The notes under the pieces were generated by a model. The model saw nothing but the letters and a program-made list of their open reading frames with translations. It searched no databases and was not told the origin of the DNA. From Patescibacteria group bacterium (GTDB taxonomy: Bacteria > Patescibacteriota > UBA1384 > XYA2-FULL-43-10 > 1-14-0-10-43-13): a stretch of 64,000 nt of DNA. The stretch is from positions 173,808 to 237,807 of the forward strand of contig JBAZNP010000001.1 in NCBI GenBank assembly GCA_041649155.1, given 5' to 3'. A program made the translations under genes and the position numbers. Shown in pieces: positions 3,295-62,567 of the stretch (position 1 is its first letter; each line of letters opens with the position of its first letter).

Positions 3295-3308
3295 AACACC
3301 CTCCTGAA

Positions 3309-3430
3309 TTAAGTAGTAAGTTGTAAGTAATAAGTTGTAAGTAATAAGTTGTAAGTAATAAGTTGTAAGTAATAAGTTGTAAGTAATAAGTTGTAAGTAA
3401 TAAGTTGTAAGTAATAAGTTGTAAGTAATT
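3309..3430. repeat. 14-bp tandem repeat array (GTAAGTAATAAGTT, about 8.5 copies) in the nrdD 5' leader
   Basis: Seven perfect units at 3323..3420, plus a degenerate first unit and a partial last unit. Lies between the NrdR boxes and the nrdD ribosome-binding site. Confidence 0.9.
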
Positions 3431-3545
3431 ATTTAAATAGCTGGTTTATAGCTTATTTACTTAATCCTTACTTGCTTAATTCTTGTTCGGTAGTTTCAAT
3501 TATAGCTTTCGCCTTATGTTCGGTCAAATTTACAAAATGGATTAA

Positions 3546-3594: not shown

Positions 3595-3798
3595 TATTGT
3601 TGATAATCTTATCAACAAGTAAAATTAACTAATTCCAGACTAAATATTTTAATTATTTAAAATAATATTATTAAAGGCTTTGTAAAAAAATATTAAAACC
3701 CTCAAGGTATAAACTAGTTATTAGCAGGTTAGTAATTAGTTTTTAGAAAAATTAAAAACTCGCCGAAGACGAGTCAATAAGTTAATAAGGCAATATTT

Positions 3799-5343
3799 TT
3801 ACTGTTTACTGACAGTAATTGTAGCTTCGCTTACGTTTCCTGCTGCATCATAGGCTTTGGCCTTAAAAATGTAATCCCCCGAATGTCCAACGAACCATGC
3901 AATCTTTATCCCGATGTAACCGCTATTCTGAGTCGCCAGAAGTTGAGTTCCTGCATAAAATTCCATCTTAACCACGTTCCTATTATCAGTTGCGCGTGCT
4001 TCAAGAATCAATTCTCCACCCGTCCAAGGATGAGGATTATCTGTTGGGTTAAAAATTGTAACAACTGGATTCTCGGTATCAATTTCGTTATTACTAAAAG
4101 TCACAGAGACAGAACTTTCAGCACTTTGGCTGCTATCATAAGCGACTGCTCTCAATGCATAATTGCCATCACTATACGCCCCCGTATTAACTGTTGTTTC
4201 ATATGGGGCAGCTGCATCCTCAGCAATCAGATCATTATTAACATAAAAACCAACCTTTACAACCCCGACATTATCCGAAGCCGAAGCTTTTAGGGTAACT
4301 GATCCCGTAAGTGAAGATCCAATCGATGGCTGCGTAATAGATACAACAGGCGGAGTGGTATCTGAAATTGGCTCAGCGACACTTCCTCCTGAAGCAGATG
4401 TAGCAAGATTGCTTAACCAAGTTTTAGTTGTAACCGACGGATAACCATGGACTTCGCTCATCGCATGATATCCGTAGCCGGAGTAAAAATAAGAATAATC
4501 TTCAGCGATAATTTCAACTTCGCAATTGCCCCATCCGAGAGAATAATCCGTAGCAGTGGCTGCTTTGGAAAGATGACGAGTAGAGTAATAACTGTCAGGA
4601 AATCTGACGCCGGCCGGCAAGTTCAAATCAACCCATTTGTGGTAAAGAGTATAATGATGACCATATTCGTGGGAAAGAACCAGCTTCATGTAATCATAAA
4701 ATTGCGGAGAATCCTTATGATAGTAAACGTTTAAAACTATGTAGCCAAACGCCGAAACAATATCTCCGCTGGAATTAGTTGAATAAGAAGCTTGATATTG
4801 ACCCTCCCAACCAGTATCACCGGCATTCCTGATAGTGATCTGGTACATGTAGCTTACTTCACTACTCCACTTAAGCTGAGAATTTAAATAATCTTTTAAT
4901 GTTTTTTCAAGTGCTGGATAGCTGCCCGTTTCATCGGAATATCTAATACTATAGGGCGAAGCTCCGGTAGGACCAAGACTTGCGATGCTGCTTAACTCCG
5001 ATGAATTTCCACCACCATCAGAAACTAATGTGGTTTTACTCCCGTCAGAATTGGTTGTTGTGTTTCCTGTAATTTTGCTTGAAGCTGAATGCTTAGGAGG
5101 CTCTTGAGCTATAGTGCTGGTTGTTACAGGAGCACTAATCGTAGCTCCTAATTCCGTTGGCATTTGGGTTGTGTCTGTGACTACCGTTTCCTCAATTTTT
5201 GCTGGTTGTCGTCCAAAAGCAGCTTTTACAGAATTCCAAAGACTGCGATCAAAGTAAAAAGTCGCCGAAACAGCCGTTACAATAAATACAAAGGCTATTA
5301 AAAATATGGCAATTTTTTTATCGAATCGATCGGCCCTCAACAT
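3799..5343 (-). CDS. membrane-anchored or secreted HExxH zinc metalloprotease-like protein with C-terminal Ig-like repeats
   Basis: N-terminal TM helix, Ser/Thr-rich linker, HEYGHHYTLYH (HExxH), and two similar C-terminal repeats (VTLKASASDNVGVVKVGFYVNN and TDNRNVVKMEFYAG). Confidence 0.55.
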   Translation of the reverse strand: MLRADRFDKKIAIFLIAFVFIVTAVSATFYFDRSLWNSVKAAFGRQPAKIEETVVTDTTQMPTELGATISAPVTTSTIAQEPPKHSASSKITGNTTTNSDGSKTTLVSDGGGNSSELSSIASLGPTGASPYSIRYSDETGSYPALEKTLKDYLNSQLKWSSEVSYMYQITIRNAGDTGWEGQYQASYSTNSSGDIVSAFGYIVLNVYYHKDSPQFYDYMKLVLSHEYGHHYTLYHKWVDLNLPAGVRFPDSYYSTRHLSKAATATDYSLGWGNCEVEIIAEDYSYFYSGYGYHAMSEVHGYPSVTTKTWLSNLATSASGGSVAEPISDTTPPVVSITQPSIGSSLTGSVTLKASASDNVGVVKVGFYVNNDLIAEDAAAPYETTVNTGAYSDGNYALRAVAYDSSQSAESSVSVTFSNNEIDTENPVVTIFNPTDNPHPWTGGELILEARATDNRNVVKMEFYAGTQLLATQNSGYIGIKIAWFVGHSGDYIFKAKAYDAAGNVSEATITVSKQ

Positions 5344-5353
5344 TCCCTCCTCG

Positions 5354-5390
5354 CCCCGTTTGATAGCGCAAAGCGGCTATCTAACTGGGG
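5354..5390. repeat. conserved leader hairpin, copy 1 (CCCCGTTTGATAGCGCAAAGCGGCTATCTAACTGGGG)
   Basis: Imperfect long hairpin immediately 5' of the ribosome-binding site of the 3799..5343 gene (minus-strand sense). Related copies at 47577 and 54888. Confidence 0.6.
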
Positions 5391-5394
5391 CATA

Positions 5395-8137: not shown

Positions 8138-8213
8138 TCCCCGATAGCTCAATTGGCAGAGCGCTTCGCTGTTAACGAAGATGTTACTGGTTCGAGTCCA
8201 GTTCGGGGAGCCA
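8138..8213 (+). tRNA. tRNA-Asn (anticodon GTT)
   Basis: Cloverleaf by eye: acceptor TCCCCGA/TCGGGGA, anticodon arm CTTCG-CTGTTAA-CGAAG, T-arm ACTGG-TTCGAGT-CCAGT, encoded CCA. An extended -10 element (TGATAGAAT) lies about 40 bp upstream. Confidence 0.85.
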
Positions 8214-9674
8214 ATTCACATTTTTACTACAAAGAGCCATTGCATCAAATGGCTTTTTGTAATTCCAGAGTAGTTTTTTACCTCTCAACCTAAGGTTTGA
8301 AAGTACGAAATTGATAAGCTGTCTCTTTTCATCTAGTTCACAACTATCAAATAGCTCTACGGCTCTCTTTGCTAGTTCTATAATATAAAAACTCGTTATT
8401 AGGAACTCTTTATCAGCAGTAGTATGATTGCTCATTTTGCCATTCAAGAACTCTTGTCTGTCCTTCAATTCTAGGAATATTTTGTCATATTGGCCGTCAG
8501 TAATACGACCCTTCAAGTTATCCAAATAAGCTTTTTGGACCATACCATCAATTTCGTCAAATTCCTTTCTGAATTGGCGTATTGATGACTTGTATACATC
8601 TCGTTCAGAATAAAAGGTTTTTTCCATTTCAGTTTTTAGTTCTTCCACAACATCATCAGGCATTACTAAGCCAACAAACGCTTTTCTGACTTGAGACAAT
8701 AGTTCTTCCTCTGTAACCCTTTCAGCACCGCATTTGCCCTTATATTGGTTGCAGATGCAATAATTGATACCTTTAGTTGGGTCTTTACCAACCATACAAT
8801 CACAATGGTCGCATTTAACTAGTCCTCTAAATGCAAACGGCTTGCTTGCATACTTAATTACAGTATGAGATTTTCCCTCTCTTACAGCTTTGCATTTTTC
8901 AAATAGCCATTTTTCAATAAGTGGTTCATACCTATGAGGATGAAGTTTGCCGTTATAAAGCATAACCCCATAATAAAAAGGGTTCTTTAATATTTGGTCC
9001 AGTTGGCTTTTTATTACTGGCTTTCCTGCTTTAGTGCTATTTCTTAAACCCTCGTCTTTCAAAATTTGAACTATCTGCTTGAGGCCATAGTTTCCAGTTG
9101 AGTAGAGTTCAAATGCTTTTTTAACCAAATAACCCCTATTTTTATCAATAACTACTTCTTTCCTTTCATTGATATCAGCATTAAGGTAGCCGATAGGTGC
9201 TTTCTCTGGCCATTCGCCATTTCTTATTTTTTGCTCAATTGACCTTTTTACATCATCAGATAATCTGTTCAAATATTGCTTAGCAAGAAAGACCTTTGCT
9301 TCCCACATAAACATTTGGTTACCAGTAGCTTCTGCATTTATATAGAAACCCTCTTGAACAAAGTGTATTTCCAAGCCATCATTTCTTCTTAATTCGTCAA
9401 TATCAACAGCGTCTCGGAAATTTCTCGTTGCTCTGTCTACATTTTGGCAAAGCAAAACCCTAACATCCTTATTTTTCTTCAGATAGTCGAGTACTTCTTC
9501 AAATTTTCTTCTTATTTTGTGTCCAGCACTTTCAGAGAAAGAAAATTCTTTATCAATCTTAAAATTATTTTTGAGGGCATATTCTTTTAGTCTTCTTATC
9601 TGTGCAGGGAGCGAATGCCCCATTTCTTCCTGCTCTTTTGTCGAAACTCTTGCCAGAATTATAGCTTTTCGCAT
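8184..9674 (-). CDS. large serine recombinase (integrase)
   Basis: N-terminal resolvase domain (ILARVSTKEQ with the catalytic Ser, and VDRATRNFRD), a recombinase domain, and a Cys-rich Zn ribbon (CDHCDC...CICNQYKGKCG). The last 10 codons are encoded by the complement of the tRNA-Asn 3' half. Confidence 0.85.
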   Translation of the reverse strand: MRKAIILARVSTKEQEEMGHSLPAQIRRLKEYALKNNFKIDKEFSFSESAGHKIRRKFEEVLDYLKKNKDVRVLLCQNVDRATRNFRDAVDIDELRRNDGLEIHFVQEGFYINAEATGNQMFMWEAKVFLAKQYLNRLSDDVKRSIEQKIRNGEWPEKAPIGYLNADINERKEVVIDKNRGYLVKKAFELYSTGNYGLKQIVQILKDEGLRNSTKAGKPVIKSQLDQILKNPFYYGVMLYNGKLHPHRYEPLIEKWLFEKCKAVREGKSHTVIKYASKPFAFRGLVKCDHCDCMVGKDPTKGINYCICNQYKGKCGAERVTEEELLSQVRKAFVGLVMPDDVVEELKTEMEKTFYSERDVYKSSIRQFRKEFDEIDGMVQKAYLDNLKGRITDGQYDKIFLELKDRQEFLNGKMSNHTTADKEFLITSFYIIELAKRAVELFDSCELDEKRQLINFVLSNLRLRGKKLLWNYKKPFDAMALCSKNVNWLPELDSNQ

Positions 9675-9724
9675 AATAACCTTTCTTATTTATAATTATA
9701 CGTTACTTATAGTCAACAATAAAG

Positions 9725-10822
9725 TTATGTCCCGTCTAAATATTCGCTTATTTTAAGCATTTCAAAGCTACTCAACTGGTTTGATACTTGTTCAAATCCT
9801 TGAGCTTTAACGTTTTTAGGCAGATTTAGAGAGAGTATGTCCTTTTTAAGCTTAGTAAAAGTTTTACCAGATGATGCTTTCTCTAGTAGTCTTTTGAATC
9901 TATCCGCACCCTCCTCTTTGATAACCCTAACAGACATCGCTAACGCCAGTGCTGTAATCGGTCTAAATTTACGGCTCTCTAAAATTTTTTCAAGAACAGT
10001 AAAATCATCGCTGTCCTTTATAAGTGCTAATTGCATATTTGAAGTTATCTCTTCCCAATAATGATTTAGCACCTGTTGAGATAGCTTTTTTGAGAACATA
10101 TTTTCTAAGGTCAAATCATTAGTAATGTTGAGAGTTTTGAATAATTGTTTAATCTTTGCCCTTTTCACTAATCTAATTTCAAATCTCAACACTTCCATCG
10201 GTCTCTGTTTCTTCTTAATTTCGTCAAATAAATTAAGCTGAATTGCACTCTCTTTCTCAAAAGCTCTTTTTTCGCTTATCTTGGATTGCTCCATATCCTT
10301 AATCTTGTCGTAAATTGCAATTTCAAATGAATTACAGTGAAAATGCAAAATATAACCAAAATTTCTAAAGCTATTTTGTTGAATATCAAGGCGTTTAGTT
10401 AGGTCAATCTTCTTAAGTTCATTCAGAATCATTGTACTTTTCCAGTAATTGCTTAGAGCTATATTTTTAGAAAAATCTATTTTTGACACATCAGCCGTTC
10501 TCAAAAAAGAAGGAAAAACCCCAATGCCCATAATCTTTAATCTTTCGGCAAGAATTTTGACGAGACTGTCGAAATCAGTTTCATTAAGTTCATCAAAGTT
10601 GTTACCGAACAGCATTTTTGGTGCTGAAAATTCAATCTTTAAGAACAACTTTGAACCGCCCCGCTTATATGGGGTCAATCTTGGCAAATAAACATCGCTT
10701 TTTCTGCTTCCGTTATAGGCGAGTTTGTCAAAGCCATTGTTAGAGGAAATTGGGATGAACTTAGTGTTATCTGTTATCCAAAATTCATTCGGCTTCAAAG
10801 TTATGGCTATTGTATCTATCAT
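9725..10822 (-). CDS. putative replication-initiation protein (Rep_trans-like), or hypothetical
   Basis: About 365 aa with no clear motif. The assignment is only by general resemblance to rolling-circle or phage Rep proteins and by island context. The start is uncertain and overlaps spoVG. Confidence 0.3.
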   Translation of the reverse strand: MIDTIAITLKPNEFWITDNTKFIPISSNNGFDKLAYNGSRKSDVYLPRLTPYKRGGSKLFLKIEFSAPKMLFGNNFDELNETDFDSLVKILAERLKIMGIGVFPSFLRTADVSKIDFSKNIALSNYWKSTMILNELKKIDLTKRLDIQQNSFRNFGYILHFHCNSFEIAIYDKIKDMEQSKISEKRAFEKESAIQLNLFDEIKKKQRPMEVLRFEIRLVKRAKIKQLFKTLNITNDLTLENMFSKKLSQQVLNHYWEEITSNMQLALIKDSDDFTVLEKILESRKFRPITALALAMSVRVIKEEGADRFKRLLEKASSGKTFTKLKKDILSLNLPKNVKAQGFEQVSNQLSSFEMLKISEYLDGT

Positions 10823-11087
10823 TACTTTTTTCAATTACTTCTTTGGCTTTGTTAATTATTGCTTCTTCAATACTCTTGGAAGTTTCTTTATTGATGGGAT
10901 GGAATAAATTTATTTGCCTAATCCCAATTTGCTTTGTGGGGTAGGTTATCCGATAGCCAGAACCATCAGCTTTTACGTGTATCCCAATAGAACTTAAGTA
11001 GATGCTCTGATTAACTACCAAGCTCGCAAACGCAATTAGACCATCTTTTGCCTTAATGGGGATAATTTGTACTTCAGATATTTCCAT
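10785..11087 (-). CDS. spoVG: SpoVG-family nucleic-acid-binding protein
   Basis: MEISEVQIIPIKAKDGLIAFASLVVNQSIYLSSIGIHVKADG...FHPINKETSKSIEEAI aligns to the SpoVG core (MEVTDVRLRRV...AIASITLD...HDIRV...HPIN). Confidence 0.6.
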   Translation of the reverse strand: MEISEVQIIPIKAKDGLIAFASLVVNQSIYLSSIGIHVKADGSGYRITYPTKQIGIRQINLFHPINKETSKSIEEAIINKAKEVIEKSNDRYNSHNFEAE

Positions 11088-11316
11088 CGTTTACTCCTTC
11101 TTTTTCTTTCTGTCTTATTCGGAGGTCTATTTTCATAAGTAATTCAAAGAAGCCGACTAAATTGCTTTTCATATCTGCAATCTCATCAACAGAAAGAGCG
11201 TGGCCGTAAAGTTGTTCAAGGGGTGTAGATTGTTTTTTGGTTTCTTGCATAAAAAATATCCTCGAATAGAGGATACTTCTTAGATTATGGTCGCTACTAT
11301 GCTACTGAATGGTCTC

Positions 11317-11991
11317 TTATGGTCTCAAATGGTCTTTGTCTTTATTATTGACTCTTACCATTAAGCTCAAATTACCGCAGTTATTGACTAATTCGACAGG
11401 TTTTAATTTTGTTCTAGTCCTTATCTTCTTAATCCTGTCGTTTATAATAATATTATTTAGTGTTTTATCATTTGCGTCAGATTCGCTTAAACCGAGTTCG
11501 CTCAATAGCTCCTGCCTTGAAAGGTAACCGTTATTAAGAACTATCTTATTGAATATCTTGTAAAGATTTTTATCTGTTTGAAATTTGAACGGATTGTCCT
11601 TGATATAACCAATCCCAGAACTAGGACTATACCAGTTTGTAGTTTCTGGCTCGGCAATCTGTTCTTTCTTAGTTTTGCCTTTTCTTAATTGTTCAAGGGT
11701 TAGTCTTCGTATTTCCGCTTCCTCTCTCTGTTTTGTAAAATCAGGGGCAATAGCCGTATAAGTTACTGGCTCAGGGAAATTAAATTGGGGCATCTCTATT
11801 TTTCCAAGGCGTTTCAAGTTTTCTGCAGCTGAGGCTGCCGCATCTTTTACGGCAGACAACATAGTTCCAGAAATAATATCTTTTGGGATTATGCTGTTTG
11901 CTTTTACTAATTCGCCAAGACCTGAAAAATTATCCGAGGATTCGGGAAGATTATCTAGGTCTAAATCAAATTTTTTACTATTTTCGCTCAT
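11317..11991 (-). CDS. hypothetical protein
   Basis: 224-aa ORF on the island with no recognisable motif. Confidence 0.4.
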   Translation of the reverse strand: MSENSKKFDLDLDNLPESSDNFSGLGELVKANSIIPKDIISGTMLSAVKDAAASAAENLKRLGKIEMPQFNFPEPVTYTAIAPDFTKQREEAEIRRLTLEQLRKGKTKKEQIAEPETTNWYSPSSGIGYIKDNPFKFQTDKNLYKIFNKIVLNNGYLSRQELLSELGLSESDANDKTLNNIIINDRIKKIRTRTKLKPVELVNNCGNLSLMVRVNNKDKDHLRP

Positions 11992-12016
11992 ATTATTACT
12001 GCTTTAGGTTCGTTTT

Positions 12017-12898
12017 TTAGAACTTCATTTCAGGCACTTTTTTAGTTTTAATTCTATCATCCATAGTATCTATATTTTCTAGTAGTTGCTTATCAGGAAT
12101 TTTTATTGCTATCTCTTTTGATAAATTAAGGTATTTCCTAGCTTCTCGGTATCGGTACATTGTCCTCAGCTGATTGGCATAATTATAAAGAGCTAGTGCT
12201 TTTTCTGGCAAATCGTTATTTTCTTCTGAGATACTAATCGCTTTGAGAAAAAACTTATCAGCTTCTTTGTGTAGTAATTTCAATCCTTTTTTGTCTTTTC
12301 TATTATACAAGAGATGCTCTAATCTTTTCTCAATCAACCAATGTTGTAACCCATTCTTTCCAATTTTATTGTATCGTAATTCCATTGAGCGATAGCCGTA
12401 TGCTTGGCCAATCATTGAATAAACAGTTGACATAAGAGCAGAATCTTTTGTCTTATCTGCTATGCCCTCTGCTTCCTTGAGACTTTGTGTTGCATTTTCT
12501 TCTAGGTCACTTAGCTCTTGCTCAAGCGTTTCATATTCAACTTGTTCTCTTTCAAGCGAAAACTCAAACCATTCAGGCGAGAGTTTTATTCTTTTCATTC
12601 TGTCTATACTTCTTAGTTTCTTGTGAAGTGAGAGCAATCCTTTATAACACAAAGCGATAGCTTTTATATCCTTGTCTACCAATCTGTTGGACAAGCGTAT
12701 TGTTTCGTTGGTTATGACCAAAAGCTGTTCTGTATCTCTCACAGGGTCCAAAGAACGATTAAGCTCCAGACCACAATTTAATCGCATAACCACATTAGAA
12801 GAAGAATTAAAAATATCAAGAAACATCTTTGCTGCTTCCTCTTTATGCCCAACTACGATCATTGCTTCGGCTTGGCTAAATTTATCTTCTTCGGACAT
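12017..12898 (-). CDS. hypothetical protein (helical, possibly TPR-like)
   Basis: 293 aa. Overlaps the upstream gene by 17 nt, which suggests an operon. Confidence 0.45.
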   Translation of the reverse strand: MSEEDKFSQAEAMIVVGHKEEAAKMFLDIFNSSSNVVMRLNCGLELNRSLDPVRDTEQLLVITNETIRLSNRLVDKDIKAIALCYKGLLSLHKKLRSIDRMKRIKLSPEWFEFSLEREQVEYETLEQELSDLEENATQSLKEAEGIADKTKDSALMSTVYSMIGQAYGYRSMELRYNKIGKNGLQHWLIEKRLEHLLYNRKDKKGLKLLHKEADKFFLKAISISEENNDLPEKALALYNYANQLRTMYRYREARKYLNLSKEIAIKIPDKQLLENIDTMDDRIKTKKVPEMKF

Positions 12899-13829
12899 AT
12901 TTGTATCTTATACTTAATAAAAATATTCTAAGTTTATTGGGGATTACCTTTTTTAGAAAAAATTTGATATCCAGAGGGTATTTGCTAAACCAAATTCTTT
13001 TTAAGGCAGAGGAGCTGGACACAAAGTAGTTACGGCACGACCCTCTAATCATTCTGTTATCTTCCTGAACACGTTTATCTGAAATTTCAATGTATCCTCT
13101 TAAATCGTTCCAGCAGAAACAAGCCACAATATCAGTAGATAGCGGTATTGTCAGCTGGATATTCTTTTGACCCAAGCCATACCCATAAAATCTTTGCCAC
13201 TGCAAATCAGGATTAAACAAATGGCAAGGTTCATCAGAAGTTATGAACTTAGCTTTACCTTTTTTTGCTGAGCATAAGAAAGATAAGTTCATATGAACGA
13301 GCATTTCTGTTATATCTGGCAACAGATTTGACAAAGTTAACTTATGAGCGTCTGTCTTATAGCTTCTGAGTTCATTGGATTTCTTCGGAGGTATATTATG
13401 AGCAGCTTCCATCCGCTCTGTCATTTCAATAATCTGGTCTAAGTTCTGTTCAATGTTTTCCTTTTGACCTTTAGTTCTTAGCATCATTGCGGCAACAAAA
13501 GCGCACAATATAATATGTTCTTCATTAGACAAGGGTTTTCTTTTTGCAATCTTATCCTGAAAAATGAGGGCATACTTATCTTCCAGCTCAGAAAGAGAAA
13601 TTTCAATTGAGTAATCATAAACGTTATTGGCACAAGAAGCTTTAGGGGATTTTAACGAGTAAATATGTTTGCTAACAAAAGCTTTCTCAACTTTCTTGAG
13701 TTCTTTTGTCTTGCCGTCTTTGCTAAATATCCATATCCGCGGGTCGTTGCCCGACTGACTTGGGTCTGAAAATTGCTTAAGATAGCATTGAGAAATATAA
13801 TGTTGTCGCTTAGGATTACCCATAAGCAA
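12882..13829 (-). CDS. DUF4238-like protein
   Basis: The N-terminal RQHYISQCYLKQF motif resembles the DUF4238 signature (HYvPqfYLrxF). Confidence 0.4.
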   Translation of the reverse strand: MLMGNPKRQHYISQCYLKQFSDPSQSGNDPRIWIFSKDGKTKELKKVEKAFVSKHIYSLKSPKASCANNVYDYSIEISLSELEDKYALIFQDKIAKRKPLSNEEHIILCAFVAAMMLRTKGQKENIEQNLDQIIEMTERMEAAHNIPPKKSNELRSYKTDAHKLTLSNLLPDITEMLVHMNLSFLCSAKKGKAKFITSDEPCHLFNPDLQWQRFYGYGLGQKNIQLTIPLSTDIVACFCWNDLRGYIEISDKRVQEDNRMIRGSCRNYFVSSSSALKRIWFSKYPLDIKFFLKKVIPNKLRIFLLSIRYKYVRRR

Positions 13830-13883
13830 AATATAGTTCTATATGGGCAATAAATCAAGGAAAAGTGTGTTTAATCTAGGGGA

Positions 13884-14573
13884 TTAAAGGTCCAGTAACT
13901 TTTCACCAAGCGAAGTGCTTAATTGCCATTTCATACTGCCATTTGAGAACATTTCGTTTATCATACCTAGCTCGTGCTGGTCTGCCCATTCTTTTGGAAA
14001 GGGATAAGCATCTTGATTCTTGCTGACCAAGTCAACACAATAAGAAATATCAATACAATCAGTAGCTAATTTTGCTTGACCGTCTTTATCTCTTACTTTC
14101 CCATAATTGATATCCCAGTTCTTAAAATCCTCAATTTTTTCTTTATCATCAAAAAGACTGTAATAAGATTTCTTGTCTTTGGAATGTAACTCAACGGCCG
14201 CTTTTTTCAGCTCTTCATCGGTAGGTTTTTGCGAGAAAACAATTAGTTTCCAAGTCTTCCCAGATTTTTGATAGCTAGTGACTTCACTGTAGGAAATTGT
14301 TGGCGTTGGGTTAGCTTTTGGTGTTTCTGTTGTTTGTTGGGCGGATTGCGCAGGTTGTTCTTTCTTCTCGTTTGTTGAACTTTTATCTGAACTTGAAGAA
14401 GAACCTGCAAGAACAAAGAACACAATAATTACTGCTCCTGTGGCAATCCATTTATTTCTTTTGTTCCAATCTGTTTTTGCCCAAACATACCAAGTAAGAA
14501 AGAACGGCCAGATACATATTGCCAGTATTACTCCCCACCATTTTTTGTACCATACTTGTTTCTCTTCTTTCAT
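13884..14573 (-). CDS. membrane protein, paralog A1 of 22032..22673
   Basis: N-terminal TM segment (WWGVILAICIWPFFLTWYVWAK) followed by a Ser-rich linker. Clear similarity to the protein at 22032..22673. Confidence 0.5.
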   Translation of the reverse strand: MKEEKQVWYKKWWGVILAICIWPFFLTWYVWAKTDWNKRNKWIATGAVIIVFFVLAGSSSSSDKSSTNEKKEQPAQSAQQTTETPKANPTPTISYSEVTSYQKSGKTWKLIVFSQKPTDEELKKAAVELHSKDKKSYYSLFDDKEKIEDFKNWDINYGKVRDKDGQAKLATDCIDISYCVDLVSKNQDAYPFPKEWADQHELGMINEMFSNGSMKWQLSTSLGEKLLDL

Positions 14574-14575
14574 TT

Positions 14576-15163
14576 TTACCCTTTCTTGTTAATATTTTTT
14601 ATGCCCTTAAAATAAAGTTCAGCATCCTTTGAGCTTGGACCAGATATAATAAAATGTTCATCTTTAGCCATTTCGGGATATTTTATAGTTAATGAGTTTT
14701 TTAGCATTCCATTATTAAATAAAATATCAATCGCTTTCTCATATAAAACACTTATCATTGAATTTTGCCCGACAAATATAAATCGTTTGTTGGTCATAAT
14801 CATTTGACCTGCATCTATCCTCTCAACCGCTTCTACTGATTTTTCAGAGGTTTTACTTCCCGCTGTTACAGCTCCGCCTAAAGCACCGAGTGGACCGAGC
14901 AATAATCCTCCGACAACCGCTCTGCCAGCAACACCTTTTTTCTTTTCGGTGCTGATTGTATGACTTACAATTGCCATTCTTTGAGATGAGAAAGTAGCAT
15001 ATGCATTCTCATCTGGTTCAAGGTTAAAATCAGTTTTTATCGGTTGGATATGACCTTCCAATATCTCGTTTTTTCTATGCTCTTCCTCAGCTTTTTTCCT
15101 ACTTTGCTCATCTTGATAATTTTCATAACCTTTTTTGATTTTAGAAATCAGGTCAAAACCCAT
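14576..15163 (-). CDS. glycine-zipper TM plus bacterial-PH-like protein, paralog B1 of 21432..22010
   Basis: KKGVAGRAVVGGLLLGPLGALGGAVTAGSKT is identical in both paralogs. The C-terminus (TNKRFIFVG...) is bPH_2-like. Start set at MGFDLISKIKKGY by homology. Confidence 0.5.
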   Translation of the reverse strand: MGFDLISKIKKGYENYQDEQSRKKAEEEHRKNEILEGHIQPIKTDFNLEPDENAYATFSSQRMAIVSHTISTEKKKGVAGRAVVGGLLLGPLGALGGAVTAGSKTSEKSVEAVERIDAGQMIMTNKRFIFVGQNSMISVLYEKAIDILFNNGMLKNSLTIKYPEMAKDEHFIISGPSSKDAELYFKGIKNINKKG

Positions 15164-15250
15164 AACGAACCTCTTTCTATGATTACTATTTCTGATAGTG
15201 TGACTTATAATCCGTAGACCTATAGTCATAATCTACCACAAAATGGTAGT

Positions 15251-15478
15251 ATGATAAAAGAGCAAGAGCTAAAATCTATCACAAAGAAATTCGGCCAACG
15301 AATTAGAGATGAGCGTACGAAGCAAGGGATATCCCAAGAGGAGCTTGGTTTTAGGACTGGTTTGGATAGAACTTATATTTCAGGTATTGAAAGAGGCGAA
15401 AGAAATCCGTCACTTAAAAACATCGCCAAAATAGCCATTGCTCTAAAAATAAACTTGAACGAGCTCTTTACCCTCTAA
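15251..15478 (+). CDS. XRE-family HTH transcriptional regulator
   Basis: QEELGFRTGLDRTYISGIERGERNPSLKNIAKIAIAL is a classic Cro/C1-type HTH. Confidence 0.7.
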   Translation: MIKEQELKSITKKFGQRIRDERTKQGISQEELGFRTGLDRTYISGIERGERNPSLKNIAKIAIALKINLNELFTL

Positions 15479-15527
15479 CAGTCTTCAAAATTTGGCTTTA
15501 CTAAGCTTTTTTTGGTATACCAAGATT

Positions 15528-16094
15528 ATGATGAATTTCTCAAACAATGTTTTTGGACCGCAACCGCCTAGGTTCTTACCGATAAAACCGCCAAAGCGGA
15601 AAGTTTTTATTAGCTTTCATCACGCCAATGACCAACAAGCTTACAATATATTGAAGAGATTATTTTCTGATAAATACGAGGTGTTCGAGGACCATTCGTT
15701 AAACAACCAGCTAATCAATAGCCAAATAGCCGAAAATATTGACCGAGCAATACGAGAGCGTTTTATAAAAGGGTCTTCAATTACAATTGTTCTGTGCGGT
15801 GAAGAGACCCACAAAAGAAAATATGTTGATTGGGAGATAAACTCAACATTACTACACGAACACGCATTGCTCGGAATTGTTCTACCGACAGCTACAAAGA
15901 ATGTTCAAAACCAGCACATTGTTCCAGACAGATTGGCTGTGAACGCAAATTCTGGCTATGCCCACTGGGAGCTGTGGGATAATTGTGCTGGAAGTGCAGA
16001 CAATATAAATATGGCAATTGAAGTGGCATTGTTAAATAGTAAAAACAAAAAGCTACTAGACAATTCTCTTCCTAAGATGCATAGGAATTTATGA
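15528..16094 (+). CDS. TIR-like domain protein (DUF1863 / ThsB-like)
   Basis: KVFISFHHANDQQ and KYVDWEINS motifs typical of MTH538/TIR-like domains. Overlaps the downstream gene by ATGA. Confidence 0.55.
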   Translation: MMNFSNNVFGPQPPRFLPIKPPKRKVFISFHHANDQQAYNILKRLFSDKYEVFEDHSLNNQLINSQIAENIDRAIRERFIKGSSITIVLCGEETHKRKYVDWEINSTLLHEHALLGIVLPTATKNVQNQHIVPDRLAVNANSGYAHWELWDNCAGSADNINMAIEVALLNSKNKKLLDNSLPKMHRNL

Positions 16095-16516
16095 AGAACG
16101 ATGAAAAAATAAAGCATCTAGAGTTCATTCAAGGCGTCATCAACCGTTTGGCCAATAACTCCTTCTTGATTAAGGGATGGCTAATAACAATTACTTTAGC
16201 TGGACTGAGCTTTTATCTGACTCAAAAGAAGACCACCATTCTACCAATTCTATTGGCAACAGCAATTCTTTTTTGGTTTTTGGATTCTTATTATCTTAGA
16301 CAAGAGCGATTGTTTAGAAGATTGTATGCCGATGTGGTAAAAGGAAAAATAGAGCCAATCTTTGATATGGATGTTTCAAGATATCAAGACAAAATCCAAA
16401 ACTCATTTGCCACAATGTTCTCTTATCCCAATTGCTTTTTATATATTGCGATTATTGCACTAATATTGGTTCAAATTGTGCTGTCTCTCAAAATTGAGAT
16501 AAGCATAAAATTCTAA
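16091..16516 (+). CDS. small multi-TM protein, SLATT-like putative membrane effector
   Basis: 141 aa. An N-terminal helix followed by 2 to 3 hydrophobic TM segments. Translationally coupled to the TIR-like gene. Confidence 0.35.
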   Translation: MKNDEKIKHLEFIQGVINRLANNSFLIKGWLITITLAGLSFYLTQKKTTILPILLATAILFWFLDSYYLRQERLFRRLYADVVKGKIEPIFDMDVSRYQDKIQNSFATMFSYPNCFLYIAIIALILVQIVLSLKIEISIKF

Positions 16517-18159
16517 CGAGTTAAAGTTAATTCGGGTATTCTCTTGAGAAAAGCATACTCGGACAGAACTTTAATTTCGTTATTTAATTGCAGAATTGAA
16601 TCATAGTATTCAGTTCTGAACTTATACACCAAGGGGAGCCATAGTTGCGATTTTATAAAATGAGCTTGTGATTCACCTTGTTGAGTCTCAACTTGTGGTA
16701 AAGAAAGCAGTGTTTCAAACAATTCAGTTGGCACTGCTTTTTTGATTTTCCTATTTTCGACTATTATCTCGTTCCAAAATAGGTCAATATACGCTCTTTT
16801 TCTTTTTGGACTTGCCGTCAAATATGCCTTGAATACATCCTCTGCTAAAAACATTAGCTCTTCAAACACCCGTGTGTTATCAGCTCTATTTACTTGAAGC
16901 TTGCCTAGTTTCTTTTCTACAACTTTCAGCTCGTTCTTTATTCTTGTGGTTTGTCGGATATAAGTTTCACTACCAATTACTCTGTTGCCAAGGTCTTCTT
17001 CATAGTTAGATCTCTGCTTTTCTAGCTTGTTTTGCTCGGACAACAAGTTGTTTCTAGCAATATCAATATGATTATGATTTTGCGATAGATATTTTTTTGC
17101 CTGAAAGACTATTTTTCCAATCAGCCGTTTGGGTAATTGAAGATTTTTGAATAACTCTTCTACCATTTTCTCCAAGTCCTTAGTGCTTATGTTCTGTAAT
17201 TTATTTGAGTGAACAGAGCTACTTGCGGGACAATGATAATACGCTTTTTCTTTAGCGCCGTGATGCTCAGCGGTGTAATGCCGACCACATTTCCCACATT
17301 TTATATAACCGCTTAAAAGAAATTGATGTTTTCTTTTTCTGTCGACATATTTGTTGTGTTGCTCTAAAATTTCATTGCAAGTTTCAAAAGTTGTTTGATT
17401 TATGATTGGCTCGTGCTTTCCTGGATAAATTTCACCTTTGAATTCAATTTTTCCAGTATAAAAAACTTCTTTAAGAATGTTGATCATCGCTTGCTTCCCA
17501 ATTTTGTTGCCAGTTCGTGATCTTAAGCCTTCCTCAAACATAATGTCGCACAGATTTTCAACAGAATATGATCCGGTAGCAAATAGCTTAAATGCTTTTT
17601 CAAGTAATGGTGCGACTACCTTATCTAGTGCTATAATATTTCTCTCAAAACCACTCGTTACTGTTTCATTAACCACATTCTTATAACCTATTCGTGCAGG
17701 ACCAGCCCACCAACCTGCTTGAATCTTCTCCATCATTGAAATACTAGTTTTTCTGCCTGTTATCTTTGGGGTTAGTGCATTAACTGCAGCCAAAATTGAA
17801 TCCATAAATCTACCCTCGGGTGAGTCATCTAACATAGGCTGATTTATTGATCTGATCTTCGTTCCAGATTTTAGTAGCATTGATTTAACCGCGAAATGTA
17901 GAGACTCATCTCTAGCCAATCGGTCAGTATCAATAACGTAAACGTAATCAACAGAGTTATTCTTACAATAAGCAATCATTTCTTGCAGTCCTGGGCGGTT
18001 CGGATTGCTTCCAGATAAACCTTCATCTTGAAAAACTTCAAGCAAGTTGCCTCCGTCTTCGGCAATAGCTATCTTTCCTTTGCTCATTTGCGTTGGGATA
18101 GAGCAATCCTTTTTGGCCTGTTCGTCAGTGCTTACACGTCCATAAATTACACAATTCAT
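16513..18159 (-). CDS. large serine recombinase (second copy)
   Basis: IYGRVSTDEQ with the catalytic Ser, VIDTDRLARDE, a recombinase domain, and a Zn-ribbon Cys cluster (CGKCGRHY...HCPA). Confidence 0.85.
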   Translation of the reverse strand: MNCVIYGRVSTDEQAKKDCSIPTQMSKGKIAIAEDGGNLLEVFQDEGLSGSNPNRPGLQEMIAYCKNNSVDYVYVIDTDRLARDESLHFAVKSMLLKSGTKIRSINQPMLDDSPEGRFMDSILAAVNALTPKITGRKTSISMMEKIQAGWWAGPARIGYKNVVNETVTSGFERNIIALDKVVAPLLEKAFKLFATGSYSVENLCDIMFEEGLRSRTGNKIGKQAMINILKEVFYTGKIEFKGEIYPGKHEPIINQTTFETCNEILEQHNKYVDRKRKHQFLLSGYIKCGKCGRHYTAEHHGAKEKAYYHCPASSSVHSNKLQNISTKDLEKMVEELFKNLQLPKRLIGKIVFQAKKYLSQNHNHIDIARNNLLSEQNKLEKQRSNYEEDLGNRVIGSETYIRQTTRIKNELKVVEKKLGKLQVNRADNTRVFEELMFLAEDVFKAYLTASPKRKRAYIDLFWNEIIVENRKIKKAVPTELFETLLSLPQVETQQGESQAHFIKSQLWLPLVYKFRTEYYDSILQLNNEIKVLSEYAFLKRIPELTLTR

Positions 18160-21110: not shown

Positions 21111-21286
21111 CTTTATCTTTATACTTATACTTACTTAAACCAACGTAACAAATTAGAACTGATTACTCAATTGTCCATTGTGTTTTTGATAATTTTGAGG
21201 CATAATTCAAATTGTCAGAGCGATCTGATAAACACAATCTAGTTGCACCTAACCCTTACCAGCAATGATAAGGTATGGTGCCAAAT

Positions 21287-21400
21287 CCTCGGTTAAAAAC
21301 AATGACGGTCTAGCGACCGCACTTTTTAACCGAGGTCTGTGCTCGAAAGGGCGCAGGATAGTCCCGAAAGGGGCTGTCGTGGTTCGCTAGGCCATTTTTG
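21287..21400. other. structured intergenic element: 13-bp-stem hairpin plus two GAAA-tetraloop hairpins
   Basis: CCTCGGTTAAAAA..(23 nt)..TTTTTAACCGAGG, then GCTC-GAAA-GGGC and GTCCC-GAAA-GGGGC. Lies about 30 bp upstream of the paralog B2 start. Confidence 0.3.
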
Positions 21401-28016: not shown

Positions 28017-28166
28017 TAAAAAAATGATCGACTTCAGTTGGTCTTTTTCTTTTATTAAAAATAAAATTTCGCATTATAACTAAAACGGTATTCAAAATAG
28101 AACTTTACACAGCTATCGTCAATGATTAATATTTGGTTAGTAATGTGGTCGACTTTGTTGGAAGCA

Positions 28167-28200
28167 CGAAAAGCGCCCTGATCATCAGGGCGCTTTTCGT
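28167..28200. terminator. hairpin terminator candidate
   Basis: ACGAAAAGCGCCCTGAT-CAT-CAGGGCGCTTTTCGT is a long perfect stem. Confidence 0.45.
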
Positions 28201-28227
28201 TATTTAAACAAGAGCAATTTTTATTGA

Positions 28228-39560: not shown

Positions 39561-39696
39561 TAGGCTCCTTTCAGTCGCAATTATCAAAAAACAAGTGACA
39601 AATTCCAAATAAATCTCAAAAGTCAATCAAACAATAACCAAATATTTGAATTTTGTTTCTTGTATCTTGTTACTTGTAAAAAGTACCACTTTTTAC

Positions 39697-41427: not shown

Positions 41428-42596
41428 TAACTATGTATTCGTTTGATTAATGGATTTATTTGTGTGATTATTTCATACCAAGAAGTATCTGCCAGCAAAG
41501 CTAATTCATACGCGGTTACTTCTTCTTTTCCATCCTTGCCCAATAGTACAACTTCATCACAGATCTTTATATTTTTAACGTCAGTAACGTCAATAACAAT
41601 CATGTCCATTGAAATCCGTCCCAGTATTTTCGCTCTTTTGCCTTTAATTAGCACATGACCAATGCTTGATAAGTCTCTTTTATAGCCATGCCAGTATCCA
41701 ATAGGTAAAATGGCAACCTTAGAGTCTCTATCTAGATTTTCCGTGAAATCGTAACCAATACTTTCACCTTTTTTGATGTATTTTATCTCGGAAACAATCG
41801 TTTTCCAACATAATGCGGTTTTTAGTTTGATTTTTTCTTCATAACAGGCTTTCGTTTCGTATGATGGCCAAAGCCCCATCATTCCGATTCCAATTCTAAC
41901 CATATCGAAATGCGCTTTTGGAAAAACAATTGTTCCGGACGTTGCAGCAGCATGCTTAATTGGTTTAGAACCAAAAGACTTTATAGTCTCTACTGCTTTT
42001 TCAAACTGCTCAATCTGCTTGTTTGTATCTGCTGGAAATGATGGATTTTTTGCAGCTGCAAAATGGGTATATATTCCTTCGAATTTAATTTGGGGCAAAT
42101 TCTTTTTGATAAATAAAGCAACTTTCTTAACTTCATCTAACTGGAATCCCTGCCGATGCATACCTGTATCGATCTTTATATGAATATTTAGTTCGTTGCC
42201 TTTCCCCTTTTTGTCATTTCGAGCGATATCACCAGAGGCGAAGAGTCGAGAAATCTTTTCCAATTGCTCGAAACTTGAAATTGTAATACTAATGCCGTTT
42301 TTTCTTGCTTCATCAAAATTCTCAGCCATTGTATAGCCCAAAACCAGTATTGGCTTTTTTATTCCGTTTTTTCTAAGTGTCAGCGCTTCTGTAATAGAAT
42401 CAACGCCAAAAAAATCAACGCCAAACTTTTGCATTAGTAATGGATAACCAGCAAACCCATGACCGTAGGCGTTTGATTTGACAACCGCCATCAACCGACA
42501 TTTTTTCGAAATCAAACCACGAAAAGCATCGTAATTATTTTTCAATGCTTTCTTATCAACCTCAACCCAAGTTCTAAGACTAATGTTTTTGTTCAT
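41427..42596 (-). CDS. alr: alanine racemase
   Basis: PLP-binding AVVKSNAYGHG motif. About 390 aa. Confidence 0.85.
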   Translation of the reverse strand: MNKNISLRTWVEVDKKALKNNYDAFRGLISKKCRLMAVVKSNAYGHGFAGYPLLMQKFGVDFFGVDSITEALTLRKNGIKKPILVLGYTMAENFDEARKNGISITISSFEQLEKISRLFASGDIARNDKKGKGNELNIHIKIDTGMHRQGFQLDEVKKVALFIKKNLPQIKFEGIYTHFAAAKNPSFPADTNKQIEQFEKAVETIKSFGSKPIKHAAATSGTIVFPKAHFDMVRIGIGMMGLWPSYETKACYEEKIKLKTALCWKTIVSEIKYIKKGESIGYDFTENLDRDSKVAILPIGYWHGYKRDLSSIGHVLIKGKRAKILGRISMDMIVIDVTDVKNIKICDEVVLLGKDGKEEVTAYELALLADTSWYEIITQINPLIKRIHS

Positions 42597-43717: not shown

Positions 43718-44179
43718 ATGAGCATTGAAAATAATTCTGGACAAGCAGAAACTTTTAGTTCAGAAAAAAAATCTCAACCAATAAGTATGTTTAATTTCGA
43801 CGGTGTCGAAGAGCCGGTTTCTTTTGTTGAAACCATGCAAGTTATCGATGGAGTCGAATGCGATATTTATAGTTTTACTGAAGATGAAAGAAAGGATCTT
43901 GGAATTATCAGGGTAGAACCAGGCAAGAAAACTCCCTTACAAAGAGTGCTTCAAGGCGAAAAGACGATAGAACAGTATATTTCTGGAAAAGGTAAATTAA
44001 CGATTACCAGGCAAGACGGGACACAAGATGTATTTCTTGCCGATGGATCAAATCATGTCTCAAGAATAGTAAATATTGGCGAAATGATGCAGTGGGAAGC
44101 AGCTCCCGATTCTGATTTGATAGCTGCTGAAATTTGCTATCCACCTTACCAAGATGGGCGCTTTGAAAACATCAATTAA
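43718..44179 (+). CDS. hypothetical protein
   Basis: 153-aa ORF. Confidence 0.4.
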   Translation: MSIENNSGQAETFSSEKKSQPISMFNFDGVEEPVSFVETMQVIDGVECDIYSFTEDERKDLGIIRVEPGKKTPLQRVLQGEKTIEQYISGKGKLTITRQDGTQDVFLADGSNHVSRIVNIGEMMQWEAAPDSDLIAAEICYPPYQDGRFENIN

Positions 44180-44275
44180 GATCTAGACCGGAATGTCCCG
44201 CCATTAAAAAATAGCCCTTGTGGTTATTTTTTAGTATTATTAAAATAATGATAATAAAATATTATAAGGAGTTTT

Positions 44276-44611
44276 ATGGAATTTGAAAAGGATACTAAAG
44301 AATGCAAAGGTATTAAATTTTCTCTAAAAAAAGACGGTAAGGAAATTGCCAGAGCTACTTTATATGTAATGAGCAATGACTTGCATGAAGAGCCATTTGG
44401 ACTAATGGAAGATGTAATGGTAGATGAAGAACTTCGAGGCCAAGGCATTGGTACTGAACTAGTAAAAAAAATAATTGAAGAGGCTAAAGAACAAAAGTGT
44501 TATAAGTTGATTGCGACAAGTCGACATTCCAGAGAAAAAGTACATGAGCTATACGAACGCTTGGGATTTGAAAATCACGGATTAGAATTTAGAATGGATT
44601 TCCAGATATAA
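44276..44611 (+). CDS. GNAT-family N-acetyltransferase
   Basis: VDEELRGQGIGTELV (acetyl-CoA-binding motif A) and the C-terminal LYERLGF. Confidence 0.65.
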   Translation: MEFEKDTKECKGIKFSLKKDGKEIARATLYVMSNDLHEEPFGLMEDVMVDEELRGQGIGTELVKKIIEEAKEQKCYKLIATSRHSREKVHELYERLGFENHGLEFRMDFQI

Positions 44612-44658
44612 TACTTGCTAAACGTTCTATAAATTGCCCCACTATTAATAAAAAACCA

Positions 44659-45144
44659 ATGAATAATAATCAATTTTCGCAAAATAATTCCGAATTAACG
44701 GTTGATGCAACCATTCCAAGATCCGAGCAATACTCCATGGGTCAGGATTATGGAAGAAAAAGAAAAAATATTCTGCCGATTATTATAATAATTTTGATCA
44801 TAATAATTGCAGTGATAACGATTTTAATAAATCAATTTAAAACAAAGACAGTTTCAGAAGAAGCAAAGACAAGAGATACACAAAGAGCACAGGATGTCGG
44901 GAAAATTGCCGGTTATACTTTAGCTTTTAAACAAAAAAACGGTCGTTGTCCAAGTACTCCTGACGAGCTGAAAACATCATACATTGATTCCATACCCGTC
45001 GACCCTCTTACAAAAAAGTCATACAAAATAACTTCGTCGGGAAGCAGCTGTATAGTCTCGGCAGAAATGGAAGACAAAGATAATCTACTCTTAAAATTTG
45101 ATAGCACACCTAATGATTCCGTGTATACTATGTCAGTCAACTAA
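44659..45144 (+). CDS. pilin-like membrane-anchored protein
   Basis: Hydrophobic helix LPIIIIILIIIIAVITILI followed by RDTQRAQDVGKIAGYTLAFKQKNGRCPST, which resembles the type IV pilin or pseudopilin post-helix region. No canonical G/FTLIE prepilin site. Confidence 0.45.
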   Translation: MNNNQFSQNNSELTVDATIPRSEQYSMGQDYGRKRKNILPIIIIILIIIIAVITILINQFKTKTVSEEAKTRDTQRAQDVGKIAGYTLAFKQKNGRCPSTPDELKTSYIDSIPVDPLTKKSYKITSSGSSCIVSAEMEDKDNLLLKFDSTPNDSVYTMSVN

Positions 45145-45147
45145 AAA

Positions 45148-45186
45148 AAATAGGAGTAGCTTCCAAATGAGCTAACTCCTATTTTT
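45148..45186. terminator. bidirectional terminator
   Basis: AAAAAAAATAGGAGTAGC..GAGCTAACTCCTATTTTTT. Confidence 0.55.
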
Positions 45187-45190
45187 TAGT

Positions 45191-45216
45191 AGATCTCCGT
45201 CTTCACGAGGATGACA
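45191..45216. repeat. TGTCATCC-family hairpin element, inverted orientation
   Basis: The reverse complement TGTCATCCTCGTGAAGACGGAGATCT matches the family termini. Confidence 0.5.
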
Positions 45217-45234
45217 CAATAAAATATTATCGAT

Positions 45235-47562: not shown

Positions 47563-47576
47563 TTTTTCCCTCCTTG

Positions 47577-47637
47577 CCCCGTTTGATGCCCTGTTTGATA
47601 TTGCAAAGCAATTATCTAACAGGGGCTATCTAACTGG
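47577..47637. repeat. conserved leader hairpin, copy 2 (internally duplicated)
   Basis: CCCCGTTTGATG-CCCTGTTTGATATTGCAAAGCAATTATCTAACAGGGG-CTATCTAACTGG. Immediately 5' of the pps GGAGGG ribosome-binding site. Confidence 0.6.
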
Positions 47638-47644
47638 ACATATT

Positions 47645-48112
47645 TTAGTGTTCTATTTTAGTTAGAACCTCTTTTATGATATCGTAGCTAAACCCTCTGC
47701 CCATTAAATGTCTTAATAATTTTTCTCTAGCCTTTTTATCTTCTGTTATCTGTATACTGTTATCTGTATGCTTTCTTAGCCATCTTTTCGCCAACTCTTT
47801 AGCGCTGTTCCGCTCTTCATTAATGTCAATTTTTCCCAAAACATCTTTTATGATTTTTTCATCAACATAAAGTTGTTTTAGTCTTTGCTCAAGTTTGTAT
47901 TTCCCTTGCGGTTTTATACTAAGTTGATTTCTGACAAAATTAGCAGCAAATTTTTCGTCATCCAGGAATTTTTTATCGTTAAGAAAAAGTATTACCTCGT
48001 CAATTTCCTCTTTGGAACACTTTCTGACTAACATTTTGTTTTTTATCTCACCGACGCTGCGGTCTCTTATTTTTAGTAGATACAGGGCATATTCAAGCGG
48101 TTTCAATTTCAT
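47645..48112 (-). CDS. recX: RecX regulatory protein
   Basis: Lies downstream of recA. Helical repeat protein of 155 aa (YALYLLKIRDRSVGEIKNKM...). Confidence 0.7.
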   Translation of the reverse strand: MKLKPLEYALYLLKIRDRSVGEIKNKMLVRKCSKEEIDEVILFLNDKKFLDDEKFAANFVRNQLSIKPQGKYKLEQRLKQLYVDEKIIKDVLGKIDINEERNSAKELAKRWLRKHTDNSIQITEDKKAREKLLRHLMGRGFSYDIIKEVLTKIEH

Positions 48113-48115
48113 AAA

Positions 48116-49150: not shown

Positions 49151-49159
49151 TATGTTCCC

Positions 49160-49867: not shown

Positions 49868-49924
49868 GATAATTTATAATTTAATAATTTTTTAATGTTT
49901 AAACATTTAGATTTTTAAATTTCT

Positions 49925-52156: not shown

Positions 52157-52167
52157 ATCCCTCCGTT

Positions 52168-52527: not shown

Positions 52528-52613
52528 TTTATCCCTATTCTTTTATCAACGCCACAAAAATTCCTTTTTGAAAGTTACTTTCATTATACTATTACTAAAA
52601 CCTCTCTGCAACA

Positions 52614-52644
52614 AAATCGCTCCGATGTTACATCGGAGCGATTT
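52614..52644. terminator. 14-bp perfect hairpin (AAATCGCTCCGATG-TTA-CATCGGAGCGATTT), likely the RNase J terminator
   Basis: Perfect stem. On the minus strand it is followed by TTTTGTTG. Confidence 0.45.
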
Positions 52645-52661
52645 GCATAATACTTTATACT

Positions 52662-54762: not shown

Positions 54763-54775
54763 TTTTTTCCTTGTT

Positions 54776-54845: not shown

Positions 54846-54887
54846 ACTATGCTGTCAAATTAATTTTTGTTGAGAAATTTTATTTAT

Positions 54888-54922
54888 CCTGTTTGATGCT
54901 GCAAAGCAGTTATCTAATCAGG
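54888..54922. repeat. conserved leader hairpin, copy 3
   Basis: CCTGTTTGATGCTGCAAAGCAGTTATCTAATCAGG. Confidence 0.6.
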
Positions 54923-54931
54923 ATTCTTTCT

Positions 54932-62366: not shown

Positions 62367-62567
62367 TAAGCAATTACTTAGATATTAAACTCCAAAGTAT
62401 AACCAACGGTACCCATAATGTCAAGATAAATTTCCACTTTTTGGCCTTTGTGTCTTTCTTATATTTAAATACTTTCGTAACTGTGGTATTTATTAAATAG
62501 ACAATAAATATTAATAACCCCAGCAAAATAAGTGATTTCATCACATTTCACGGGGTAAAGGAGTGCC

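Follow-up and report, generated by a model that had tools for sequence, protein, structure and literature searches.

Hairpin copies in the window

The window, i.e., the whole 64,000-nucleotide stretch of Patescibacteria group bacterium DNA analysed here, has a GC content of 37% and carries hairpins in three spacers between minus-strand genes, in the orders gmk-hairpin-Big_7 gene, recA-recX-hairpin-ppsA, and UDG-hairpin-rnj (Table 1). A reading made from the letters of this DNA before our analysis (hereafter the sequence-only reading) had placed imperfect hairpins at these sites and quoted a consensus for them; both the three sites and the consensus were found to be correct. All three copies fold, c1 and c3 with minimum free energies (MFE) of -22.2 and -12.3 kcal/mol (z -2.8 and -3.2), and c2 as a two-tier hairpin. 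The fold energies of other short co-directional spacers in the window range from 0 to -5 kcal/mol, versus -22 and -28 for c1 and c2. When a 28-nt degenerate core pattern was searched with up to 3 mismatches, it matched the window three times, at the sites of c1-c3, and 0 times in 100 shuffles. The window copies c1-c3 are thus far beyond chance.

Table 1 Hairpin copies and adjoining Shine-Dalgarno (SD) sequences. Positions are those of the window unless another sequence is named; R1 is the covariance model described below.
Feature	Position	Strand	Sequence	Score or fold
Copy c1 (type I)	5353..5391	-	GCCCC-A-GTT-A-GATAGCCGCTTTGCGCTATC-A-AAC-GGGGC	R1 61.7 bits
SD of Big_7 gene	5345..5350	-	GGAGGG	
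Copy c2, two-tier hairpin	47576..47639	-		-28.3 kcal/mol, z -4.3
Outer type-I arms of c2	47627-47639 (5') and 47576-47587 (3')	-		
Inner copy c2i (type II)	47588..47626	-	GCCCCTGTTAGATAATTGCTTTGCAATATCAAACAGGGC	R1 61.3 bits; family D3
SD of ppsA	47568..47575	-	AAGGAGGG	
Copy c3 (type II)	54886..54924	-	ATCCTGATTAGATAACTGCTTTGCAGCATCAAACAGGAT	R1 57.1 bits
Diverged copy c5	62517..62556	+	ACCCC-A-GCAAAAT-AAGTGATTTCATCAC-ATTTCAC-GGGGT	
Degenerate copy in L010, about 3.4 kb left of the window	L010 19331-19366			R1 match

The copies fill the narrow space between a stop codon and the next ribosome-binding site (RBS). Copy c1 starts 3 nt past the gmk stop codon (5397-5395) and ends 2 nt before the SD GGAGGG (5350-5345) of the Big_7-domain gene, and c2 starts 5 nt past the recX stop codon and ends 0 nt from the ppsA SD, so the earlier statement that the 3' arm of two copies runs into the SD holds. 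Copy c3 starts 7 nt past the UDG stop codon, and its 3' end now lies 123 nt upstream of the rnj ATG (54762), because a separate 69-nt palindromic element (54776-54844) has been inserted between the two. A position immediately 5' of the RBS, which had been claimed for all three, therefore applies to c1 and c2 but not to c3, although the c3 orthologue in a relative (L023) does lie 6 nt from the ATG. The ppsA copy had been described as internally duplicated. Two copies are indeed present there, but not in tandem: c2 is a type II copy (c2i) nested complete inside a type I copy. The outer arms are identical to c1 at 14/14 and 12/12 nt, and the nearest kin of c2i is c3 (90% over 30 nt).

As a side observation, the Big_7 gene probably starts at the TTG at 5340 rather than at the ATG at 5343 (window 5338-5343); relatives have AGG or AAA at the position of the ATG and retain the TTG at the right distance from GGAGGG.

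Common structure of the copies

Twelve aligned copies fit a single helix, with 86.9% of cells paired, compared with 68.7% for shuffles and 35-44% for slid partners. Both sides change in 12 of the 16 pairs among these copies, a degree of covariation to be read with the caveat that several copies were found using a model of the same structure. The basal stem is GC-rich and variable, with a 1-nt 5' bulge above it. Above the bulge comes the core, in which conserved GTT/AAC, an A.A mismatch, and conserved GAT/ATC together make up GTTAGAT/ATC(A/T)AAC, and the top of the hairpin is formed by a variable apical stem and a U-rich loop. The A.A mismatch is usual, being replaced by a Watson-Crick A-U pair in one copy. 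Outside the hairpins, the 7- and 8-mers of the core occur at chance frequency without enrichment.

Further copies in the source genome and elsewhere

A covariance model (R1), built from four copies and run with filters off, added two copies in the source genome, c5 and one to the left of the window. Copy c5 lies in the 5' untranslated region (UTR) of a PspC-domain gene, 3 nt from the SD GGAG and 11 nt from the ATG at 62568. It scores weakly with R1 and reaches 37.7 bits with R2, a 12-sequence covariance model whose training set includes c5. Its architecture matches that of the other copies, and its core resembles the 'B' subfamily of another metagenome-assembled genome (MAG), described below. 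The degenerate L010 copy lies 8 nt before the ATG of a 49-aa ORF, with a promoter-like TTGACA-N17-TATACT site upstream. Such a model search had been proposed as a check on whether copies always precede an RBS; both new copies lie just before a start codon, and c3 does not. A further R1 match, at 42099-42147(-) within the alanine racemase gene, was rejected as chance (E 0.07, without the internal stem).

No copy was found in the 10 kb to the right of the window, and R2 added none in the window plus L010 (84.5 kb). The source genome thus has five loci in ~79 kb of contiguous sequence, with copies of 34-42 nt; by extrapolation, ~30-40 copies would be expected per genome of 600-800 kb. Among relatives, R1 gave no match at E<=1 in 66.6 kb, and R2 found nothing in 89 kb beyond the UDG|rnj orthologue in L023 and the copies of the other MAG.

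We also searched public collections with the exact pattern TTAGATA-N4-CTTTG-N4-ATCAAAC, a strict form that probably misses length variants. Nine matches were obtained in public genome contigs, and complementary flanks were present only in the Patescibacteria MAG contig JADFPI010000003.1 (L008/L027). None of the 11 matches in metagenome contigs has a stem, and the single match in viral contigs lies at the same position, in a contig of the same length, as one of these stemless matches (L021). With two exact-pattern scans of large public collections, the hairpin family was found in one other genome only, which is a small sample.

In this other MAG (L027), there are six hairpins within 16.7 kb, arranged as three inverted pairs, [A+][B-], whose members abut. 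Each pair is sense to its downstream gene, and the hairpin adjacent to the SD is the inverted B form. No inverted pairs were found in the source genome, where the copies are single or nested.

Comparison with related genomes

At gmk|Big_7, the window reads ATTTGATAT, a 39-nt hairpin plus GA, and GGAGGGAATGTTGAGG, whereas the closest relative (L031, with a gmk 83% identical to that of the window) reads ATTTGATAT, TATT, and GGAGGGAAGGTTGAGG, and is a clean empty site. The GGAGGG of the Big_7 gene is already present in this empty site; therefore, the SD lies outside the inserted element. No target-site duplication was seen in this comparison of empty and filled sites. The hairpin is also absent from the same junction in L032 and L033, and in L034 and L035 the junction carries a different palindromic element.

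At recX|ppsA, the hairpin is absent in L023, L024, L038, and L039, and the ppsA SD is conserved in these hairpin-free relatives; the 3' ends of recX are too diverged for the insertion boundaries of c2 to be defined. The recX|ppsA spacer of L039 (1053-1142) is filled with reiterated (C/A)GTTAAC / AATTAAC words, which is yet another kind of spacer filler at that junction.

At UDG|rnj, L023 has a degenerate orthologue of c3 (3744-3780). About one third of its positions differ from c3, as counted from the alignment, and the core is lost; the stems are retained by two compensatory changes, T-A to C-G and C-G to U-A.

Close relatives thus lack the hairpin where their gmk|Big_7 and recX|ppsA junctions correspond to those of the window, and a conserved cis-regulatory role at the genes it flanks is not supported.

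Placement and orientation of the copies

The four window copies are all intergenic, none lying inside coding sequence, and intergenic DNA makes up ~10% of the window. In all five of five co-directional spacers the hairpin is sense to the genes. Two copies sit in long spacers between divergent genes, that of L010 (266 nt) and c5 (201 nt), where they are 8 and 11 nt from the ATG of the gene to which they are sense. Overall, 7 of 9 hairpins or hairpin pairs end 6-14 nt from a start codon, two of them in 5' UTRs of 200-266 nt, and most copies end 0-3 nt before a free SD. A structured hairpin family, in sense orientation within transcribed spacers, also agrees with the earlier statement that the copies are not promoter sequence.

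The GC skew is monotonic over the window, as for a single replichore, yet copies occur on both strands; the orientation bias therefore follows transcription and not replication. For the same reason, replication-strand-specific insertion of the IS200/IS605 type is disfavoured as its source. The bias argues for selection or insertion bias at the level of RNA or translation initiation.

The genes downstream of the copies have no common functional theme. In the source genome they encode a Big_7 surface protein, PpsA, RNase J, a 49-aa peptide, and a PspC-domain protein, and in the other MAG an unknown protein, a 58-aa peptide, and AhpC.

A probable REP-like origin of the hairpins

Presence in some relatives but not in others, nesting, inverted pairing, and a patchy distribution lead us to somewhat favour the view that a small (~34-42 nt) non-autonomous palindromic repeat of the REP/BIME/REPIN kind has spread in the source genome and at least one other, and that the hairpins are its copies. 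The comparisons show the copies to be insertions into short transcribed spacers, not something inherited with the neighbouring genes. A trans-acting enzyme may recognise the conserved core of the folded hairpin and copy the element, and the insertions that persist would be those in sense orientation to the transcript and with the SD left free, unless insertion itself is so biased. In the transcript, a copy would fold into a stable hairpin that separates the stop codon of one gene from the SD of the next. Such a hairpin could incidentally shield the first cistron at its 3' end and the second at its 5' end, and could also insulate the RBS; it would not be a gene-specific switch.

REPs are extragenic imperfect palindromes of 20-40 bp with an unpaired GTAG or CGTC tag at one end (PMC3733652). 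REPs and BIMEs follow stop codons, are transcribed, form inverted dimers, and are species-specific (PMC3733652, PMC2817692), and the RAYT gene is flanked by two inverted REPs (PMC2817692). The present hairpins share with the REP/BIME/REPIN elements of Proteobacteria the size range, the imperfect palindrome with bulges or mismatches, the extragenic multi-copy and species-specific occurrence, the frequent position just past stop codons of co-directional genes, transcription, and patchiness between relatives; the inverted dimers typical of BIMEs and REPINs have their counterpart in L027 only.

They differ from REPs in several respects. The flanks of all copies were read, and none has a GTAG or CGTC tag beside the stem. 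Their apparent copy number is low, whereas REP copies usually exceed 100 per genome. They are strictly sense and flush with the SD, and this includes copies in the 5' UTRs of divergent genes, a location in which few REPs occur. Their stems covary about a fixed core, whereas REP copies are near-identical, and their host is a Patescibacteria (CPR) genome. Finally, no RAYT tyrosine transposase, the enzyme that mobilises REPs, was found in the ~95 kb examined, which amounts to ~12-16% of a genome of 600-800 kb. Within this scope, no Y1/HUH transposase or GIY-YIG nuclease appears among the 50 of 62 window ORFs scanned against Pfam, or in the precomputed Pfam matches for called genes of the flanking and overlapping loci; those of the L010 called genes cover the left 16 kb of the window.

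A GIY-YIG nuclease was considered as a 'REPtron-like' mobiliser and rejected. In L027 (6198-6780), an 86-aa GIY-YIG gene lies between two hairpin pairs that are mutually inverted repeats, with its TAG stop codon within a hairpin arm, an arrangement that resembles a REPtron. The third hairpin pair lies between unrelated genes, and, given this pair elsewhere, the link looks coincidental. In addition, the window and L010 encode no GIY-YIG protein, tblastn with the GIY-YIG protein gave no more than a chance-level match in the window, R2 has no match in L032, which has a GIY-YIG gene, and R1 has none at E<=2 in L029.

Against a mobile element stands the low copy density of five loci in ~79 kb. The copies also differ by many compensatory changes, which long-term selection on structure fits better than a recent burst, and a sense bias that follows transcription is not predicted for a purely selfish DNA element.

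Two other known systems are comparable. Like MITEs such as Correia and the Rickettsia palindromic elements, which can be co-transcribed and can alter mRNA processing, the hairpins are short non-autonomous insertions present in some relatives and absent from others. They differ from MITEs in being much shorter, the whole element being a single hairpin, and in showing no target-site duplication at the one resolvable empty site. The malE-malF REP stabiliser and the RNase III sites of phage T7 are intercistronic hairpins conserved in specific operons. They too are stable hairpins that leave the downstream SD free, whereas the copies studied here are insertions missing from orthologous operons.

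The kind of element is a known one. The variant, the host phylum, and the placement bias are new as far as we could find, and our search of the literature on small dispersed repeats in CPR/Patescibacteria returned no linking paper. CPR genomes are very small, with little room between genes. In the window, at least two palindromic families occupy the short gaps that separate stop codons from ribosome-binding sites, and one of these families also has a copy in-frame within an essential gene. If the sense-only, SD-flush placement holds genome-wide, it would be a natural experiment on how much structure the translation-initiation regions of bacteria tolerate or exploit, as well as a handle toward a new mobilising enzyme. 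In practice, hairpin repeats of this sort are likely to fragment CPR assemblies and can be taken in error for conserved riboregulators.

Alternative explanations

The sequence-only reading had proposed a shared control of translation or mRNA stability. In one version, a trans-acting RNA-binding protein would read the bulged-A / A.A core near the SD and co-regulate the downstream genes, the element having perhaps spread by insertion and then been co-opted. We consider such an operator unlikely, and nothing in the observations calls for one. That every copy is sense, that so many end close to a start codon, and that the core is conserved while both stems covary and the SD stays free would all be expected of it. 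On the other hand, the downstream genes share no theme, the hairpin is missing at the same genes in close relatives, and in the other MAG the inverted B form lies beside the SD, so that the A core does not abut it. The A.A mismatch, moreover, is Watson-Crick paired in one copy, and no candidate protein was found. The regulatory reading is thus partly supported: a structured sense hairpin, mostly flush with the SD, makes an RNA-level effect plausible, but the lack of a common theme and the empty junctions of relatives speak against shared control. The RNA thermometer suggested with it fails, as the SD is never sequestered in the folds. A riboregulator that sequesters the SD was rejected likewise, since for c1 and c2 both the MFE fold and the centroid fold leave the SD unpaired. 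A scan of the window at Rfam gathering thresholds returned only a LOOT RNA and two tRNAs, and a permissive scan of 47520-47680 gave chance-level matches of at most 17 bits, far under the gathering scores.

A combination of mobility and function is a rather doubtful prospect. It would be a previously undescribed class of mobile hairpin in CPR, moved by a non-RAYT mobiliser, with insertion or survival coupled to the direction of transcription and to a site 5' of the SD, and the host would use it as a movable module beside the RBS, serving as an operator for a protein or as a barrier to RNase J. If this were true, a mobile element would be wiring translation-initiation regions.

The hairpins might instead be pure RNA structures without mobility, acting as RBS insulators or as barriers to 5' or 3' exonucleases in a processed polycistronic mRNA, and arising or spreading by gene conversion. 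We regard this as improbable. Stable hairpins between stop codon and SD would serve such a purpose, the source genome encodes both RNase J and PNPase, and compensatory changes keep the stems, even between orthologues. A conserved 15-nt core, however, is more than a generic barrier would require; the majority of comparable spacers lack a hairpin, and relatives manage without one at the same junctions. Neither the nesting nor the inverted pairs are accounted for.

A site acting at the DNA level, such as an attC-like or other recombinase site, a transcription-factor operator, or a DNA-uptake signal in the form of inverted repeats, seems very improbable. The core does fit the integron core-site words GTTRRRY and RYYYAAC. 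In attC, RYYYAAC (R'') stands 5' and GTTRRRY (R') 3', whereas the hairpins have the opposite polarity, 5'-GTTAGAT...ATCWAAC-3', and no integron integrase was found; integron attC is rejected on both counts. The recombinases seen in the window are two of the large serine type, not of the tyrosine-recombinase type. Their presence favours a recombinase site, but att sites of large serine recombinases were rejected, since the hairpins occur in many copies, lie between genes, and show stem covariation. CPR bacteria probably rely on DNA uptake, which would speak for an uptake signal; this too was rejected, because the core 7- and 8-mers outside the hairpins occur only at chance frequency. For an operator read in duplex DNA, the covariation of spacer and flanks as stems would be needless.

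Least probable of all is a U-tract-independent transcription terminator or attenuator: GC-clamped hairpins starting 3-7 nt past stop codons might suggest one, but no copy is followed by a T-tract (as the sequence-only reading had noted in excluding terminators), a terminator scan of 44000-63900 calls neither copy 2 nor copy 3, canonical hairpin plus T-tract terminators occur elsewhere (e.g., the palindrome at 28155-28211 and 58135-58108), and two copies lie in 5' UTRs before start codons, with others in tight operons directly before an SD.

Second palindromic family and other features of the window

The source genome has also been invaded by a second family of dispersed palindromes, which are bounded by TGTCAT...ATGACA, measure 69-126 nt, and contain two hairpins each. 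Its copies lie in the window at 593-672, 54776-54844(-), and 61059-61184, and in relatives at L024 ~4325-4405 and L034 ~8940-9010, where they sit at other junctions (recA|recX and gmk|Big_7). The copy at 593-672 lies in-frame within nrdG (anaerobic RNR activase) and adds ~25-29 residues, LSFRPRELCRTIGEILPKDPSASVGMTD, that are missing in three relatives; in this in-frame insertion into a gene, the family is like the Rickettsia palindromic elements. The 69-nt copy upstream of rnj appears to have given this gene a new upstream region (54760-54862), and through the same insertion the rnj start at ATG 54762 appears to be ~12 codons further upstream than the start in L023.

Several other features of the window were observed. 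A tandem array of ~10 copies of a 14-nt unit, TAAGTAATAAGTTG, lies at 3296-3449, within the 504 nt that separate nrdD from the Big_7 gene at its 3' end. The region 8138-18159 has the look of an integrated island that carries defence genes. Its tRNA gene (8138-8210) adjoins the gene of a large serine recombinase (8184-9674), and nearby are a Thoeris ThsB-TIR gene (15492-16094) and a second large serine recombinase (16513-18159). The LOOT RNA (RF03000) match at 21246-21378 (+) scores 69.2 bits against a gathering score of 46.4 and overlaps the start of the ORF at 21339. Finally, a direct repeat of ~100 nt with ~74% identity is found in the leaders upstream of rpoD and pnp (39578-39677 and 60395-60495), and may be a shared 5' leader element.
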